Shown: positions 2,273 to 8,375 of the stretch, in pieces
Numbering within the stretch: the stretch's first letter is position 1
Layout: every line of letters starts with the position of its first letter
Assembly: GCA_949293315.1 (NCBI GenBank)
Contig: CASFCH010000055.1
Location: forward strand, 12,922-76,921
Source: an uncultured Oscillospiraceae bacterium
GTDB lineage: Bacteria > Bacillota > Clostridia > Oscillospirales > Acutalibacteraceae
Direction: 5' to 3'
Length of the DNA stretch: 64,000 nucleotides
The notes under the pieces: generated by a model
What the model saw: only the letters and a program-made list of their open reading frames with translations
Database searches by the model: none
Told to the model about the DNA's origin: nothing
Translations under genes and position numbers: made by a program

Positions 2273-2301
2273 TTGACAAAAAAATTAAATTTATATATAA
2301 T
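2273..2301 (+). promoter_or_regulatory. Consensus sigma-70 promoter, copy 1 (TTGACA-17-TATAAT)
   Basis: TTGACA lies at 2273-2278, followed by a 17-nt spacer and TATAAT at 2296-2301. Confidence 0.65.
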
Positions 2302-2307
2302 AAAGAT

Positions 2308-2396
2308 ACAAGGAGCCGCCGGATGAACGGCTGGTTCCCCGCTCGATTTGACTAATCGCCGCATCTTGCTAGGGACTGGGCGGTTAGTCTTTTTTT
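2308..2396 (+). ncRNA. Candidate small RNA, copy 1 (antitoxin-like, convergent with the small ORF)
   Basis: It begins just downstream of the consensus promoter. It ends in the hairpin gactaatcgcc...ggcggttagtc followed by a 7-T run at 2390-2396, which overlaps the stop codon of the minus-strand ORF. Confidence 0.45.
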
Positions 2397-2458
2397 ATTG
2401 CTACTATGTAGCCGGTTGCGAACAGCAAAATCAGTGCCGCTGCAAGCATCAGCTCCAC
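2384..2458 (-). CDS. 24-aa hydrophobic peptide VELMLAAALILLFATGYIVAIKKD, copy 1 (type I toxin-like)
   Basis: GTG start sits 8 nt after GGAAGGAGGGAGG. The peptide has a single TM-like core and a charged KKD tail. It is identical in copy 2 despite three nucleotide changes. Confidence 0.55.
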   Translation of the reverse strand: MELMLAAALILLFATGYIVAIKKD

Positions 2459-2466
2459 GGGCAACA

Positions 2467-2502
2467 CCTCCCTCCTTCCGCAGACCGCGGGGAAGAAAGA
2501 GG
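2467..2502 (-). promoter_or_regulatory. 5' UTR hairpin sequestering the Shine-Dalgarno of the small ORF, copy 1
   Basis: CCTCTTTCTTCC pairs (with G-U pairs) against GGAAGGAGGGAGG around an inner CCGC/GCGG stem. The same element lies at 2808-2843 in copy 2. Confidence 0.45.
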
Positions 2503-2548
2503 AACCAACCGCTCACCGTTTTTCGGCAAACGCCTTGTATCATGGAAT

Positions 2549-2578
2549 AGTATAATAAAATTTTACCTTCCTGTACAA
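2549..2578 (-). promoter_or_regulatory. Putative promoter of small-ORF mRNA, copy 1
   Basis: On the minus strand, TTGTAC (2573-2578) is separated by an 18-nt spacer from TATACT (2549-2554). Confidence 0.4.
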
Positions 2579-2613
2579 TGCCGGGAGCATGGTTTTAAAC
2601 AATTCGAATATCA

Positions 2614-2642
2614 TTGACAAAAAAGATAAATTTGCATATAAT
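2614..2642 (+). promoter_or_regulatory. Consensus sigma-70 promoter, copy 2 (TTGACA-17-TATAAT)
   Basis: TTGACA lies at 2614-2619 and TATAAT at 2637-2642. Confidence 0.65.
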
Positions 2643-2648
2643 GAAGAT

Positions 2649-2737
2649 ACAAGGAGCCGCCGGATGAACGGCTGGTTCTCCACGTAAGTTTAGACTAATC
2701 GTCTCGTCTTAGCGGAGAGGGCGGTTAGTCTTTTTTT
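2649..2737 (+). ncRNA. Candidate small RNA, copy 2
   Basis: Architecture matches copy 1. The terminator gactaatcgtctc...gagagggcggttagtc is followed by a T-run at 2731-2737. Confidence 0.45.
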
Positions 2738-2799
2738 ATCGCGACGATGTAGCCGGTTGCGAACAGCAAAATCAGTGCCGCTGCAAGCATCAGCTCCAC
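2725..2799 (-). CDS. 24-aa hydrophobic peptide, copy 2 (identical amino-acid sequence)
   Basis: It has the same RBS and GTG start as copy 1. Codons ATC/GTC/GCG replace ATA/GTA/GCA, all synonymous. Confidence 0.55.
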   Translation of the reverse strand: MELMLAAALILLFATGYIVAIKKD

Positions 2800-2889
2800 G
2801 GGCAACACCTCCCTCCTTCCGCAGACCGCGGGGAAGAAAGAGGAACCAACCGCTCACCGTTTCTCGGAAAACGCCTTGTATCACGGAAT

Positions 2890-2919
2890 AGTATAATAAA
2901 ATTTTACCTCCCTGTACAA
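2890..2919 (-). promoter_or_regulatory. Putative promoter of small-ORF mRNA, copy 2
   Basis: TTGTAC lies at 2914-2919 and TATACT at 2890-2895 on the minus strand. Confidence 0.4.
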
Positions 2920-3010
2920 TGCCGGGAGCATCATCGCGGCTGAGGGCAGGCGATGATGCCCGGCTTTGGCATGATCTGTGCTTCGAAAGAGGGGCTTTTC
3001 CCGGAAAAAC

Positions 3011-3040
3011 TTGACACTGCCACCAGATATCGTGTAAAAT
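3011..3040 (+). promoter_or_regulatory. Putative promoter of the topoisomerase operon
   Basis: TTGACA at 3011-3016 is followed by an 18-nt spacer and TAAAAT at 3035-3040. Confidence 0.4.
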
Positions 3041-3111: not shown

Positions 3112-5100
3112 ATGGCAAAAACCGGCAGGGAATACGGGAACAATACGATCAAAAGCCTCAAGGGAGCCGACCGTGTCCGGAAGCGTCCGGCAGTCATCTT
3201 CGGCTCGGATGGGCTGGAGGGGTGTGAGCACTCCGCGTTTGAGATCCTCTCGAACTCGATTGACGAGGCGCGCGAGGGCTACGGCAAGCGCATCGAGGTC
3301 ACCCGCTATTCGGACGCCTCCATCGAGGTGCGCGACCGGGGGCGCGGCATTCCCGTGGATTACAACGAGAATGAAAAGAAATACAACTGGGAGCTCGTCT
3401 TCTGTGAGCTCTACGCCGGCGGCAAGTACAATACAAACGACGCCTCCGGGATGTATGAGTTCTCCCTCGGGCTGAACGGCTTGGGCCTGTGCGCTACGCA
3501 GTACGCCTCCGAGTATATGGATGCGGAGATCCACCGCGACGGCTTCTGCTATAAGCTGCATTTTGAAAAGGGCGAGCCCGTCGGCAAGATGGAAAAGGTC
3601 CCCTATTCCGGCAAGGACACCGGCACCCGCATCCGCTGGAAGCCGGACATCGCCGTTTTTACGGATATCAATATCCCGCTCGAATATTTTCAGGAGACGC
3701 TCAAGCGCCAGTCCGTCGTCAACGCAGGGGTGGAATTTATCCTCAAGTACGAGGGCGACGGCGCGCCGCAGACTTTTACCTATTGCTATAAAAACGGTAT
3801 TGAGGACTATGTAAAGGAATACGTCGGGGAGGATGCCCTCACCTCCGTGCAGATCTGGTCCACACAGCGCGTCGGACGGGATCGGGCGGACAAGCCGGAT
3901 TATAAAGTGGTCATCAACAGCGCCCTGTGCTTCTCCAATAAAAAGACGCTCAAGGAGTACTATCACAACTCTAGCTGGCTGGAGTACGGCGGCGCGCCGG
4001 AAAAGGCCGTGCGCAGCGCCTTTGTCTCCCAGTTCGACGCCTATCTCAAGCAGAGCGGCAAATACCTCAAGAGCGATGGGAAGATCACCTTCCAGGATAT
4101 TGAGGACTGCCTCGTGCTCGTGGTGTCTTCCTTCTCCACACAGACGTCGTATGAGAACCAGACCAAAAAGGCGATCAACAATAAATTTATCCAGGAGGCC
4201 ATGACGGATTTCTTCCGCCATCAGCTGGAGATCTATTTCATCGAGAATAAGCTGGATGCCGACAAGGCCGCCGATCAGGTGCTCATCAATATGCGCTCCC
4301 GCGTGCGCGCGGAGAGCACGCGCCAGAACCTGAAAAAGACGCTCCAATCCTCCAACGATCTGGCCAACCGCGTTCAGAAGTTTGTCGACTGCCGCAGCAA
4401 GGATGTCACTCGGCGCGAGCTCTTCATCGTGGAGGGCGATTCCGCGCTCGGCGCGTGTAAGCAGGCGCGCGACTCGGAGTTCCAGGCGATCATCCCCCTG
4501 CGCGGCAAGATTCTCAACTGCTTAAAGAGCGAGTACGCAAAGATCTTTAAGAGCGACGTCATCACGGATCTGGTCAAGGTACTCGGCTGCGGGGTGGAGA
4601 CGGGCGGCAAGGCCAGCAAGGAACTGGCCACCTTCAGCCTGGCCAATCTCCGCTGGGACAAGGTCATCATCTGTACCGATGCGGACGTGGACGGCTTCCA
4701 GATCCGCACGCTGGTGCTCACCATGATCTACCGCCTGATGCCCACATTGATCGAGCAGGGGCGTGTTTTCATTGCGGAGACGCCGCTCTATGAGATCACC
4801 CACAAGGGGGAGACGTGGTTCTGCTACACGGAGAGTGAGAAGTCGGCAGTCCTCAAAGAGCTTGGGGAAAAGGCGCGGCCGACCATCCAGCGCTCCAAGG
4901 GACTTGGTGAAAACGATGCGGACATGATGTCCCTCACCACGATGAATCCGTCCACGCGCCGACTGATCAAGGTTACGCCCGATAACGCCGAGGAGATGGC
5001 CCGCGAATTTGAAATGCTGCTTGGGAACGATTTGAACGCCCGTAAGGAGCACATCGCCAGCGACGGCCATCTCTATCTCGATTTGATTGACGTGAGCTGA
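3112..5100 (+). CDS. Type IIA DNA topoisomerase subunit B (GyrB/ParE family, ParE-like)
   Basis: ATG at 3112 follows a GGAGG RBS. GHKL ATPase and TOPRIM motifs are present (EGDSA, PLRGKILN, DADVDG). The N-terminus RKRPAVIFG is divergent. Confidence 0.85.
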   Translation: MAKTGREYGNNTIKSLKGADRVRKRPAVIFGSDGLEGCEHSAFEILSNSIDEAREGYGKRIEVTRYSDASIEVRDRGRGIPVDYNENEKKYNWELVFCELYAGGKYNTNDASGMYEFSLGLNGLGLCATQYASEYMDAEIHRDGFCYKLHFEKGEPVGKMEKVPYSGKDTGTRIRWKPDIAVFTDINIPLEYFQETLKRQSVVNAGVEFILKYEGDGAPQTFTYCYKNGIEDYVKEYVGEDALTSVQIWSTQRVGRDRADKPDYKVVINSALCFSNKKTLKEYYHNSSWLEYGGAPEKAVRSAFVSQFDAYLKQSGKYLKSDGKITFQDIEDCLVLVVSSFSTQTSYENQTKKAINNKFIQEAMTDFFRHQLEIYFIENKLDADKAADQVLINMRSRVRAESTRQNLKKTLQSSNDLANRVQKFVDCRSKDVTRRELFIVEGDSALGACKQARDSEFQAIIPLRGKILNCLKSEYAKIFKSDVITDLVKVLGCGVETGGKASKELATFSLANLRWDKVIICTDADVDGFQIRTLVLTMIYRLMPTLIEQGRVFIAETPLYEITHKGETWFCYTESEKSAVLKELGEKARPTIQRSKGLGENDADMMSLTTMNPSTRRLIKVTPDNAEEMAREFEMLLGNDLNARKEHIASDGHLYLDLIDVS

Positions 5101-5113
5101 GGAGGGTAAGAAT

Positions 5114-7354
5114 ATGGCAAGAAAAAAACAGGACCCCCGTCCCGCCAGGCAGGAGACAAACCCGAACGCCCACATCCTCGGCGCGGGCACCGTCGTGGAG
5201 CAGAAGATCACCGAGACGCTCGAGGTCAACTACATGCCCTACGCGATGAGCGTCATTCTCTCCCGCGCGATCCCGGAGATCGACGGCTTCAAGCCCTCGC
5301 ACCGCAAGCTGCTCTACACGATGTATAAGATGGGGCTTCTGAACGGCGGTCGCACCAAGTCCGCCAATATTGTGGGCACCACCATGCGCCTGAATCCGCA
5401 CGGCGACGCCGCCATCTATGATACGATGGTCCGCCTGTCCATGGGGTACGAGGCGCTGCTCCACCCCTATGTGGATTCCAAGGGCAACTTCGGCAAGGCG
5501 TACTCCCGCGATATGCAGTGGGCCGCCTCCCGTTATACGGAGGCCAGGCTCGCCGCCATCTCGCAGGAGCTCTTTTCCGATATTGATAAAAACACCGTCG
5601 ACTTTGTCGATAACTACGACGCCACCATGAAGGAACCCACCCTTTTGCCGGTGACATTCCCCTCCATCCTCGTCAACGCGAACACGGGCATCGCCGTCGG
5701 CATGGCGAGCTCCATTTGTTCCTTTAACTTGGCGGAGGTGTGCCATACGGCCATCGCCCTGATGCGCAACCCCGACCACGACGTGACGGACACGCTCAAA
5801 GCGCCCGATTTCACCGTGGGGGCCACCGTGCTCTATGACCGGGACGCCATCCGGAATGTGTATGAGACGGGCCGCGGCAGCATCCGCGTGCGCGGGAAGT
5901 ATGCGTACGACAAGGCGAATAACTGCATCGATATCACCGAGATTCCGCCCACCACAACCGTGGAGGCCATTATTGATAAGATCATCGAGAAGGTCAAGGC
6001 CAACGTGATCCGCGAGATAAATGATGTCCGCGACGAGACGGATAAGAGCGGCCTGAAGATCACGATCGACCTCAAGCGCGGCGCCAACCCCGAAAAGCTG
6101 ATGCAGAAAATCTATAAGATGACGCCGCTGGAGGACTCCTTTGCCTGCAACTTCAATGTACTGATAAACGGCGTGCCCCGTGTGCTCGGCGTTCGGGAAC
6201 TGCTGGGGGAGTGGACCGCCTTCCGTATGGGATGCGTCCGCCGCCGGACCCGGTTTGATCTGGACAAGGCGTCCTCTCGCCTGCACCTGCTCAAGGGACT
6301 GTCCAAGATCCTGCTCGATATCGACAAGGCGATCCGGATCATCCGGGAGACGGACGAGGAGAGCGAGGTCGTCCCGAACCTGATGATCGGCTTCGGCATT
6401 GACGAGACGCAGGCGGAGTACGTGGCGGAGATCAAGCTGCGCCACCTCAACCGTGAGTATATCCTCAAGCGCACCGCCGATATGGAGAGCCTGAAAAAAC
6501 AGATTGCAGAGCTGAAAGGCATTCTGGGCGACGATGAGAAGATCAAGGAGATCATCATCGGCGAGCTGGAGGAGGTCGTGCGCAAGTACGGCCAGCCGCG
6601 CAAAACCGATATCTGCTATGATCTGAGCGGGATTGATTCCGCCGCGGAAGAGGAGGAGATCCCGGACTATCAGGTGGATCTCACCTTCACGCGTGACGGC
6701 TACCTGAAAAAGGTGCCGGAGCTGAACGCCCGCCGCTCCACAGAGAACAAGCTGAAGGAGGGGGACGCGGTTGTCTACCGCGAGGTTGTCCCCAATACCA
6801 CGCAGCTGCTGTTCTTCACCGATAGGCAGCAGGTGTACAAGGCGCGTCTGAGCGACTTTGCCGATACCAAGATGAGCAATTTGGGCGAATATATCCCATC
6901 CGCGCTCGGCTTTGACCCGGAGGAGAAGGTCTTTGCCATGATCCCGCTGCAGAAGTACGAGGGATATATCATCTTTGTCTTTGAAAACGGCAAGCTGGCC
7001 AAGATCCCGGCGAGCTCCTATGAGACCAAGACGAACCGTAAAAAACTCATGAATGCCTATTCCGGCGCGTCGCCGCTTGTCAGCTGCCTGTATATCCCGG
7101 AGGACTGCGACCTGCTGATCTCCTCCACGTCGGGCAAGTATCTGATTCTGAATACAGCGCTCGTGCTGCCTAAGGCCACGCGCGATACGATCGGCGTCAA
7201 CGTCATGACGCAAAAGCGCAGCTGCGTCGTCAGCGAGGCGAAGGTCTTCACTCCCGGTGAGCTCTCCATGGATTACCGCTACCGGGCGCGCAAGCTCCCC
7301 TCCGCCGGCGTCATGCTCGCGGACGGGGACAATTCTGCGCAGCTTCACCTGTAA
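5114..7354 (+). CDS. Type IIA DNA topoisomerase subunit A (GyrA/ParC family, ParC-like)
   Basis: The active-site region AASRYTEARL is present. The protein is 746 aa, and I could not find a GyrA-box (QRRGGKG) in the C-terminal domain. Confidence 0.85.
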   Translation: MARKKQDPRPARQETNPNAHILGAGTVVEQKITETLEVNYMPYAMSVILSRAIPEIDGFKPSHRKLLYTMYKMGLLNGGRTKSANIVGTTMRLNPHGDAAIYDTMVRLSMGYEALLHPYVDSKGNFGKAYSRDMQWAASRYTEARLAAISQELFSDIDKNTVDFVDNYDATMKEPTLLPVTFPSILVNANTGIAVGMASSICSFNLAEVCHTAIALMRNPDHDVTDTLKAPDFTVGATVLYDRDAIRNVYETGRGSIRVRGKYAYDKANNCIDITEIPPTTTVEAIIDKIIEKVKANVIREINDVRDETDKSGLKITIDLKRGANPEKLMQKIYKMTPLEDSFACNFNVLINGVPRVLGVRELLGEWTAFRMGCVRRRTRFDLDKASSRLHLLKGLSKILLDIDKAIRIIRETDEESEVVPNLMIGFGIDETQAEYVAEIKLRHLNREYILKRTADMESLKKQIAELKGILGDDEKIKEIIIGELEEVVRKYGQPRKTDICYDLSGIDSAAEEEEIPDYQVDLTFTRDGYLKKVPELNARRSTENKLKEGDAVVYREVVPNTTQLLFFTDRQQVYKARLSDFADTKMSNLGEYIPSALGFDPEEKVFAMIPLQKYEGYIIFVFENGKLAKIPASSYETKTNRKKLMNAYSGASPLVSCLYIPEDCDLLISSTSGKYLILNTALVLPKATRDTIGVNVMTQKRSCVVSEAKVFTPGELSMDYRYRARKLPSAGVMLADGDNSAQLHL

Positions 7355-7471: not shown

Positions 7472-7583
7472 GTGGGTGTCACGCGTCTAAAACAAACATA
7501 GCAGAGGAATGCCGTGGCCCTTGCGGCCAAAACAAGCGGCACGCCGATCAGGGGGACGCACGCCTGATAGAAATGGATGGGCT

Positions 7584-8375
7584 ATGGATATGATTCTCTG
7601 GGCCGCCGGCGGGACCAGTTTCACGTTTTTGATGACGGCGCTGGGCGCGGCCACGGTGCTCTTTTTCCGCCGGGGGATCTCCGGCGTTTTACAGCGGATT
7701 TTTCTGGGCTTTGCCGCCGGGGTGATGATCGCGGCCTCTGTCTGGTCGCTCATCATCCCCGCCGTGGAGGAGGCGCAGGCGCAGGGGAAGATCGGCTGGA
7801 TCCCCGCGGCGGGCGGCTTTGTGCTCGGCGTGTTGTTTTTACTGGGGCTCGATTACCTGCTTCCGCATCTCCACCCCGGTTCCAAAGAGCCGGAGGGGCC
7901 GCATTCTCATCTGAAGCGGAGTACGCTGCTCGTCTTTGCCGTCACGCTGCACAATATCCCGGAGGGGATGTCCGTGGGGCTCTCCTTTGCGCTGGCGGCC
8001 CAGAATGCGGAGGACCCCTCCGCGCTCACGGCTGCTATGGCGCTGGCGCTCGGCATGGGCATTCAGAATTTTCCCGAGGGCGCGGCCATCTCCCTGCCGC
8101 TGCGGCAGGAGGGGGTCAAACGCGGCAGGGCATTCCTCTACGGCGCGCTCTCCGGGATCGTGGAGCCCGTCTTCGGCATCCTGACCGTGCTGATCGCGGG
8201 GGGGATCGCGCCACTGATGCCGTGGCTGCTCTCCTTTGCCGCCGGGGCGATGATGTATGTCGTTGTGGAGGAACTGATCCCGGAGGCGCACCTCGGCGAG
8301 CACTCCAATACGGGTACGCTCGGCGTCATGGCCGGCTTTCTGGTGATGATGGTCCTTGACATTGCGCTCGGATAG
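7584..8375 (+). CDS. ZIP family metal (zinc) transporter, GufA/ZupT-like
   Basis: ORF 7509..8375, with a probable start at MDMILWAAGG. It contains the HNIPEGMSVG and GIQNFPEGAAIS motifs and is polytopic. Confidence 0.8.
   Translation: MDMILWAAGGTSFTFLMTALGAATVLFFRRGISGVLQRIFLGFAAGVMIAASVWSLIIPAVEEAQAQGKIGWIPAAGGFVLGVLFLLGLDYLLPHLHPGSKEPEGPHSHLKRSTLLVFAVTLHNIPEGMSVGLSFALAAQNAEDPSALTAAMALALGMGIQNFPEGAAISLPLRQEGVKRGRAFLYGALSGIVEPVFGILTVLIAGGIAPLMPWLLSFAAGAMMYVVVEELIPEAHLGEHSNTGTLGVMAGFLVMMVLDIALG

Follow-up and report, generated by a model that had tools for sequence, protein, structure and literature searches.

A tandemly repeated type I toxin-antitoxin-like cassette in an uncultured Oscillospiraceae bacterium and its homologous loci

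The locus and its two tandem repeats

The DNA analysed here (the window) is a stretch of 64,000 nt from contig CASFCH010000055.1 of an uncultured Oscillospiraceae bacterium (assembly GCA_949293315.1), and our subject is an intergenic region within it that holds two tandem copies of a putative type I toxin-antitoxin-like cassette, each pairing an open reading frame (ORF) for a 24-amino-acid hydrophobic peptide on the - strand with the predicted gene of a small RNA on the + strand. On one side of the region is an aldo/keto reductase gene (Pfam PF00248) at 1143-2189, on the other a GyrB/ParE-like gene at 3112-5100. An earlier note on this DNA had described two 318-bp direct repeats with a period of 341 bp, each carrying on the + strand a perfect TTGACA-17-TATAAT promoter followed after about 90 nt by a stem-loop with a T7 terminator, and on the - strand a TTGTAC/TATACT promoter, a leader of ~85 nt, a very strong Shine-Dalgarno (SD) sequence and a GTG-initiated ORF of 24 amino acids, the stop codon and 3' end of which are overlapped by the + strand terminator. 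This description was borne out, with the refinements given below. The repeats lie at 2273-2590 and 2614-2931, with a period of 341 nt. Over the aligned unit (2273-2595) the two copies differ in 34 columns, including two 2-nt indels, and 30 of these columns are inside 2273-2590, which corresponds to ~90% identity between the copies. No third copy was found in the 64-kb window with either a 42-nt probe or an nhmmer profile. The GC content is ~46-54% in the cassette region and ~58-63% in its flanks, and five promoter-like sites are present in the region, against 0.9 expected from shuffled sequences.

The promoter scan gave 12 of 12 matches for the + strand TTGACA-17-TATAAT site in both copies (2273-2301 and 2614-2642). 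It is followed by a small RNA of ~89 nt, the putative antitoxin (2308-2396 in copy 1, 2649-2737 in copy 2; RNA ends are predicted positions throughout). In copy 1 the predicted fold of this RNA begins with a 5' hairpin (2312-2338) and continues through a single-stranded linker to a terminator hairpin (2350-2389) and a T7 run (2390-2396); copy 2 has the same two hairpins and T7. The free energies of folding (ΔG) are -39.2 kcal/mol for copy 1 (z -3.8 to -4.0) and -36.3 kcal/mol for copy 2, with z about -4 overall.

On the - strand, the scan calls the peptide-mRNA promoter as TGTACA-17-TATACT (9 of 12 matches; 2549-2577 in copy 1, 2890-2918 in copy 2), which is the site of the earlier note shifted by 1 nt. 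Transcription from it is predicted to start at ~2542 in copy 1 and to give an mRNA of ~240 nt with a leader of ~84 nt. The SD sequence GGAAGGAGGGAGG is placed 8 nt 5' of the GTG at 2458 (2799 in copy 2), and the ORF that follows (2458..2384 and 2799..2725; GTG start, 24 codons, TAA stop) encodes (V/M)ELMLAAALILLFATGYIVAIKKD, that is (M)ELMLAAALILLFATGYIVAIKKD when initiated at the GTG. Copy 2 encodes the identical peptide, with three synonymous third-position differences. The peptide consists of an acidic N-terminus, one hydrophobic helix of ~18 residues and a KKD tail. The mechanical ORF list starts from an earlier GTG at 2467, which would give 27 amino acids, three codons more; the 24-amino-acid start is favoured because the homologues described below (L010, L011 and L065) have an ATG aligned with the second GTG. 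The complement of the TAA stop and of the two AAA Lys codons falls in the 3' arm and T-run of the + strand terminator, and the predicted ~89-nt RNA is fully complementary to the 3' untranslated region (UTR) of the mRNA and to its last four codons.

A family of homologous loci

The peptide is too short for protein-homology tools, and public collections were therefore scanned with degenerate codon patterns for its C-terminal half. The patterns specified peptide codons only and no RNA elements, and as the scans were exact degenerate-pattern scans only, the family census is a lower bound. Matches to relaxed patterns were mostly noise (five of the seven viral matches, about 43 of the 53 genome matches, and locus L064) and were filtered by hydrophobicity, by the ORF end and then with an nhmmer profile. 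About ten homologous loci were found, in Anaerotruncus colihominis (prophage), in genomes of Acutalibacteraceae and Oscillospiraceae and in animal-gut metagenomes, and all of them encode peptides of 23-25 amino acids ending in (A/L)TGY(I/L)xxIKK(D/E). The loci from a prophage of A. colihominis DSM 17241 and of strain JM4-15 (L001, L002, L024 and L014) encode MDYGWV(I/T)LVLILATGYIIAIKKD, the DSM 17241 cassette being located in NZ_CP102255.1 (L024, ~7560-7790); those from metagenome-assembled genomes (MAGs) of Acutalibacteraceae and Oscillospiraceae (L018, L054, L037 and L050) encode MEYIIGA..(V/I)VATGY(I/L)(I/L)(A/T)IKKEK, and an Oscillospiraceae MAG (L011) and an owl-gut contig (L010) encode MELIAMMAILLLFATGYIVAIKKD. 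The others come from a Eubacteriales MAG (L048) and from pocket-mouse-gut and other metagenome contigs (L009 and L008). A phmmer search of 1.84 billion cluster representatives returned a single match, a mis-called ORF of 71 amino acids ending in MELLIAMAIILLFATGYIVAIKKD, which added one more locus (L065). Exact variants of the peptide were present among 15 billion predicted proteins for two of the ten tested, both unnamed.

The earlier note had not recognised the peptide as a member of a named family, and the database searches agree. For five family peptides, Pfam, NCBIfam and PHROGs gave only weak transmembrane-like noise (Pfam and NCBIfam at E<=10). Rfam returned nothing above chance, whether the region was searched at E<=10 or the window at gathering thresholds (hits to sX8, ar7, mir-278 and Twister-sister, all <=16 bits). 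The cassette had no blastn match among PLSDB plasmids and INPHARED phages, and the literature search found no paper with the peptide motif or tying type I toxins to these taxa.

The elements around the ORF are conserved together with it. All intact homologues with enough flanking sequence have a consensus antisense promoter, scoring 10-12 of 12, at a distance of 69-94 nt beyond the stop codon; the contig of L009 stops short of the -35 box. The homologous antisense RNAs are 87-101 nt long, and two hairpins followed by U7 were obtained for 12 of the 12 that were folded. In every intact homologue the terminator hairpin overlaps the stop codon, and the AAAAAA of the Lys codons is its T-run. All clades have the SD/anti-SD hairpin described in the next section, at -10 to -19 kcal/mol, and its compensatory changes fall in alignment columns 52-56/77-81. 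The ORF itself shows coding-type conservation: the variable columns of the family ORF number 15, 8 and 19 at the first, second and third codon positions, and the ratio of synonymous to nonsynonymous codon differences is 3:0 between the window copies, 2:0 between L010 and L011 and 4:1 between L037 and L050.

Closest to the window cassette are those of L010 and L011 (77% identity), with no further match in the flanks. As the flanking genes are not common to the loci, the cassette is the conserved unit of inheritance. In both A. colihominis genomes (L001 9226-10331; L014 1113-2610) it is situated directly 5' of a prophage GH25 endolysin gene that has the same orientation as the peptide ORF, and in L008 it comes after a phage major tail protein gene. 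The neighbours in L010 (1271-1561) and L011 (4505-4798 and 5121-5615) are small DUF6809 proteins, joined in L011 by an XRE-type helix-turn-helix regulator; this gene pair may mark a mobile element. Two tandem copies were seen in the window only, the other family loci being without tandem duplication. A truncated remnant is found in a MAG labelled uncultured Bacteroides sp. (L036, 7042-7185). Its ORF is preserved in the 3' half (..GYIIAIKKD), as is the small-RNA region, with unrelated sequence in place of the leader, SD and start codon and without good promoters, the antisense one having degenerated (TTAACA/TAATAT); it is either a decaying copy or mis-binned Firmicute DNA. In L008 (3040-3075), an extra A after the KK codons (GAAATAGCC versus GATTAGCC) shifts the stop codon and lengthens the peptide by seven residues (..IKKEIAAGLAS). 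With a contig coverage of ~3.7x, this could be either a sequencing error or a real variant.

Predicted structure of the peptide mRNA

In copy 1 the SD (2479-2467) is paired with a CU-rich anti-SD (2502-2487) in a hairpin spanning 2467-2502 on the - strand (ΔG -18.7), and the corresponding hairpin of copy 2 is at 2808-2843 (SD at 2820-2808). Transcripts of the - strand were folded from the predicted start to the antisense -10 box, for 13 full-length sequences. All 13 minimum-free-energy folds had the same topology, in which ~40 nt at the start of the mRNA pair with its final ~36 nt. The resulting duplexes, which close the whole molecule, have 26-35 bp, ΔG of -35 to -62 kcal/mol and z of -5 to -9 compared with shuffled sequences. 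In copy 1 the 5' arm is in the leader (2501-2541) and the 3' arm at the end of the 3' UTR (2305-2340), forming 35 bp with ΔG -56.3 and z -9.0; in copy 2 the arms are at 2842-2882 and 2646-2681, forming 34 bp with ΔG -46.8 and z -6.7.

In the alignable core of the helix, 15 pairs are 96% paired across the sequences, a figure that falls to 36-50% when the partners are slid against each other. Six of the core pairs have changed on both sides, which is reached in 2 of 500 shuffles, and the covariation score is higher than in all 500. The outer half of the helix differs by clade and is nonetheless complementary in each, as in the window (GAUACAAGG/CCUUGUAUC), L065 (GAUGCAAGG/CCUUGCAUC) and L018 (CAAGGAGUUAUUC/GAAUAACUCCUUG); alignment of this half across clades with MAFFT/RNAalifold failed, and its support comes from duplex calculations for each sequence rather than from column-wise covariation. 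In all members the mRNA strand forms the more stable helix, by 1-20 kcal/mol relative to the opposite strand, and in three of the four clades it is also the strand with more G·U pairs (4-8 versus 0-3). This asymmetry points to selection on RNA rather than on a DNA palindrome.

It follows from the 5'-3' helix that the mRNA must run through the whole small-RNA gene. Within this gene, the - strand has a terminator-like hairpin (2332-2314 in copy 1, 2673-2655 in copy 2) followed by a U-rich tract, at the predicted 3' end of the mRNA. Moreover, as the small RNA is complementary to the 3' UTR, its 5' half mimics the leader sequence of the mRNA and would compete with this leader for the same 3' UTR. 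We also considered whether a pseudo-SD in the 3' UTR (GGGAG/GGGGC) captures the anti-SD to switch on translation; this was unsupported, the minimum-free-energy folds keeping the SD hairpin and the closing helix together. A separate observation concerns the Acutalibacteraceae clade (L018 at ~2150-2195, and also L054, L037 and L050), in which the hairpin just after the stop codon is followed by a U-run on the sense strand too (..GGCGAUUAUUUUUUAUU). This hairpin could be a bidirectional terminator, giving a short mRNA isoform without the 3' arm of the closing helix and a read-through isoform with it.

Half of the differences between the window copies (17 of 34, including the two 2-nt indels) are concentrated in 38 nt (2341-2378 versus 2682-2716). 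This segment comprises the linker and the upper terminator stem and loop of the small RNA, and in the mRNA it is equivalent to the first hairpin in the 3' UTR. Between the copies the peptide, the SD region with its hairpin, and the terminator's base and 3' arm are identical. The simplest explanation is relaxed constraint, the segment being also the most variable across the family. Antisense recognition usually begins at a loop or linker segment of the kind that diverged here, and the antisense RNAs of copy 1 and copy 2 may be partly orthogonal in specificity.

Flanking features

A strong inverted repeat (GCCGGGAGCATCATCGC...GCGATGATGCCCGGC) is found at 2921-2964, directly upstream of the peptide promoter of copy 2. 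Folded as the + strand it has a ΔG of -32 kcal/mol, as the - strand one of -29 (z about -4 to -5). The final 11 nt common to both repeats make up its left arm, and the right arm is missing from copy 1. Neither strand has a T-run after it. The element could serve as an insulator or terminator that separates the cassette from the GyrB-like gene. A promoter with 11 of 12 matches (TTGACA-18-TAAAAT) is present at 3011-3040, ~70 nt 5' of the GyrB/ParE-like gene (3112-5100); a GyrA/ParC-like gene (5114-7354) comes after the latter. The operon of these topoisomerase genes thus has a promoter of its own and is independent of the cassette. The Rfam scan at gathering thresholds found no rRNA or tRNA marker in the window.

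Interpretation and alternatives

The cassettes combine a small (<~60 amino acids) single-helix hydrophobic ORF having its own SD and start codon, an SD sequestered by an anti-SD hairpin and by a 5'-3' helix of 26-35 bp and, as far as sequence signals indicate, a nearby antisense RNA with extended complementarity to the mRNA, which are traits of the type I class. Location in a prophage, as in A. colihominis and L008, and tandem repetition are typical of type I loci. We consider it probable that the two repeats are each a self-contained cassette resembling type I toxin-antitoxin systems, of the Gram-positive 3'-overlap class.

Such a cassette would work as follows. The moderate - strand promoter would produce the ~240-nt mRNA, with its strong SD locked in the anti-SD hairpin and its ends paired so that the whole molecule is closed in the manner of helix P1 of the bsrG mRNA. 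From the consensus + strand promoter, an abundant small RNA of ~89 nt would be made, which would pair with the 3' region of the mRNA, probably starting from the terminator loop or the linker. The pairing would displace the 5' arm of the closing helix and form a long duplex, which RNase III would cut, and for as long as the antisense RNA is produced the peptide would not be made. If the supply of antisense RNA stopped (for instance on loss of the locus, or under stress), the structured and presumably longer-lived mRNA would be translated, and the peptide would insert into the membrane and arrest growth. Transcription, decay, toxicity and neutralisation by the RNA are all steps that we infer.

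Several points weigh against this interpretation. The C-terminal motif is unusually conserved for a generic membrane-damaging peptide, a conservation that is partly imposed by the search pattern. Several members (the window, L018, L048 and L050) are located among housekeeping genes and not in mobile elements. With 23-25 amino acids, the peptides are shorter than the Gram-positive type I toxins that have been summarised. The SD hairpin of the window is very stable (-18.7 kcal/mol), so that translation may be extremely rare, and clade C (L009 and L048) is without the G·U strand asymmetry of the closing helix. Finally, the assignment is built on sequence signals, with predicted RNA ends.

Some of these points could be accounted for if the product were a non-toxic small membrane protein, such as a subunit or modulator of a membrane complex, the synthesis of which is tuned by a cis-antisense RNA. 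The motif (A/L)TGY(I/L)xxIKK(D/E) stays near-invariant across clades with diverged RNA, which is suggestive of a specific interaction and not of generic damage to the membrane; a good many members are present as single copies among housekeeping genes, and the small size of the peptide compared with described Gram-positive type I toxins agrees with such a role. A protein of this kind does not however explain why the cassette is non-syntenic and patchy, occurring in a prophage beside an endolysin gene and in a phage tail-gene region, nor why it has the traits of a selfish or accessory cassette, namely the tandem duplication seen here and the decayed remnant L036. No partner gene is conserved nearby, and a double lock on translation combined with a consensus antisense promoter is characteristic of toxic products. 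We therefore regard a non-toxic protein as a possible, if on the whole unlikely, explanation.

The family may also be something other than a generic membrane-poison system: the same near-invariant motif could mark a specific membrane target, with an antisense RNA that acts mainly by strand displacement of the closing helix, setting the mRNA open or closed, rather than simply by triggering decay. As a mimic of the leader, the small RNA would be suited to this role. Two orthogonal switches for the same peptide, if selected for, would explain the divergence of the 38-nt segment between the copies, for which relaxed constraint was named above as the simplest explanation. Taken as a whole, this proposal is in our judgement rather improbable.

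That the peptide is a holin- or antiholin-like component of a phage lysis cassette, the chromosomal copies being prophage relics, is suggested by both A. colihominis genomes, where the ORF is 5' of a GH25 endolysin gene and co-oriented with it. A strong convergent promoter and a terminator nevertheless separate the two genes there, L008 follows a major tail protein gene, and other members are found among housekeeping genes with no lysin nearby. No PHROG lysis family was matched. The peptide has only 23-25 amino acids and one short helix, and known holins are far larger. A function in lysis is thus very unlikely.

A DNA-level feature, with the inverted similarity of the cassette ends arising from terminal repeats, as in a miniature mobile element, or from a palindrome bound by protein, would fit the presence of the cassette at unrelated genomic sites and the imperfect inverted repeats of 26-35 bp near both of its ends. 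It is hard to believe all the same: the conserved sequence, including both -35 boxes, extends beyond the inverted repeats, which are thus not terminal; mismatches in three of the four clades take the form of G·U on the mRNA strand and of C·A on the other; the ORF is conserved as a coding sequence; and neither a transposase nor a target-site duplication was seen. Almost nothing speaks for the + strand RNA being the mRNA or leader of a micro-ORF (MNGWFPARFD/MNGWFST, with AAGGAG-7 nt-ATG at 2324), or a trans-acting RNA, with an incidental - strand ORF, since the SD-like AAGGAG and the ATG, though present in both window copies, open a frame that differs between them in length and sequence, L010 and L011 have GTA in place of the ATG, other clades lack it, the AAGGAG is inside the 5' hairpin stem and the - strand ORF is the conserved coding element, and this candidate was dropped as not conserved.

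Significance of the family

Read as a toxin-antitoxin-like system, the family adds a compact, sequence-unrelated set of loci from Oscillospirales gut commensals (Anaerotruncus, Acutalibacteraceae and Oscillospiraceae), including a prophage-borne copy, which is practically invisible to annotation. It independently repeats the mRNA design of the bsrG type, which supports this design as a general solution for type I systems of Firmicutes, and its about 13 natural variants are a small set in which the design can be studied. If the interpretation is true, a toxin of 24 amino acids and an antitoxin of ~89 nt would make a very compact module for counter-selection or for RNA devices in hard-to-engineer gut anaerobes. 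As systems of this kind are well known, the finding is scientifically a moderate surprise.

Comparison with known type I systems

The family is new in sequence and probably belongs to a known kind, the 3'-overlap type I toxin-antitoxin systems, and is set apart from the C. difficile peptides by description only. Sequestration of the SD by an anti-SD and long-distance 5'-3' interactions are among the key descriptors of type I mRNAs, and antisense RNAs on the 3' side are the Gram-positive arrangement (T1TAdb, PMC8594479). Gram-positive type I toxins measure 28-60 amino acids for those of B. subtilis and 34-59 for those of C. difficile (PMC6563280).

The fst/RNAII system (par locus of pAD1) also has convergent RNAs and a small single-helix peptide, and it too belongs to Firmicutes. 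In par, the two RNAs have a common bidirectional terminator and their 5' ends are complementary via direct repeats, and the interaction takes place at these ends, outside the overlap, whereas the two RNA 5' ends of the present cassette are alike and not complementary, and pairing would take place via the 3' overlap. With no Pfam match in addition, membership in the Fst/Ldr superfamily is not indicated. In hok/Sok (fold-back inhibition) and aapA1/IsoA1 of Helicobacter, the full-length mRNA is likewise closed by 5'-3' pairing and the SD is sequestered. The antisense RNA of these Gram-negative systems overlaps the 5' region or the ORF within the mRNA, while here it covers the 3' arm of the closing helix. 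A need for 3' processing for activation is a feature of hok.

The modules of C. difficile (CD2517.1-RCd8, CD0956.2-RCd10 and others) encode peptides with a hydrophobic N-terminal part and a charged, Lys-containing C-terminus, and are frequently located in prophages. Their toxins, as described (PMC6563280), have 34-59 amino acids and longer Lys-rich tails, compared with 24 amino acids and KKD here. They are often found near CRISPR arrays or cyclic di-GMP riboswitches, neither of which is present at the window cassette.

The earlier note had likened the arrangement to TxpA/RatA and BsrG/SR4 of Bacillus, and the comparison holds, for BsrG/SR4 better than that note could know, given the 5'-3' closing helix and the sequestered SD. 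The architecture of the TxpA/BsrG type is found in full at the level of 3'-convergent overlap, a P1-like 5'-3' helix and an SD in a stem. With txpA/RatA (B. subtilis skin element; Enterococcus), the cassette has in common the 3'-convergent overlap and, as the mechanism described there and proposed here, degradation of the toxin mRNA. TxpA has 59 amino acids. Similarity of the peptide to TxpA or BsrG was not detected, Pfam and NCBIfam giving only chance-level hits at E<=10, with a sensitivity that is limited for such short peptides. The RNA showed no homology to RatA or SR4 in Rfam, where searches of the region at E<=10 gave only chance hits of <=16 bits.

For bsrG, structure probing has shown that helix P1 joins nt 1-35 of the mRNA to nt 232-262 and that the SD is in a stem (PMC3834814). 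SR4 pairs at the 3' end of this mRNA, which frees nt 1-33 and extends the SD stem from 4 to 8 bp, and promotes RNase III-dependent decay, the antitoxin promoter being stronger than that of the toxin (PMC3834814). The present cassette differs from this system of the B. subtilis SPbeta prophage in its peptide (24 versus 38 amino acids), in the length of its antisense RNA (~89 nt versus ~180 nt for SR4), in having no detectable sequence relationship of peptide or RNA (no Pfam, NCBIfam or Rfam match) and in its host clade, which is Oscillospirales and not Bacilli. In addition, the 3' arm of the closing helix is here the very 3' end of the mRNA, overlapping a terminator-like hairpin, while bsrG has a separate terminator (SL4) after P1. 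What the two have in common is the design: convergent genes, an antisense RNA whose complementarity covers the 3' part of the toxin mRNA and takes in the end of the ORF, a stronger antitoxin promoter, about 35 nt of the mRNA 5' end in a closing helix, an SD in a local stem, members some of which are prophage-borne, and an antitoxin the binding of which would necessarily displace the 5' arm.

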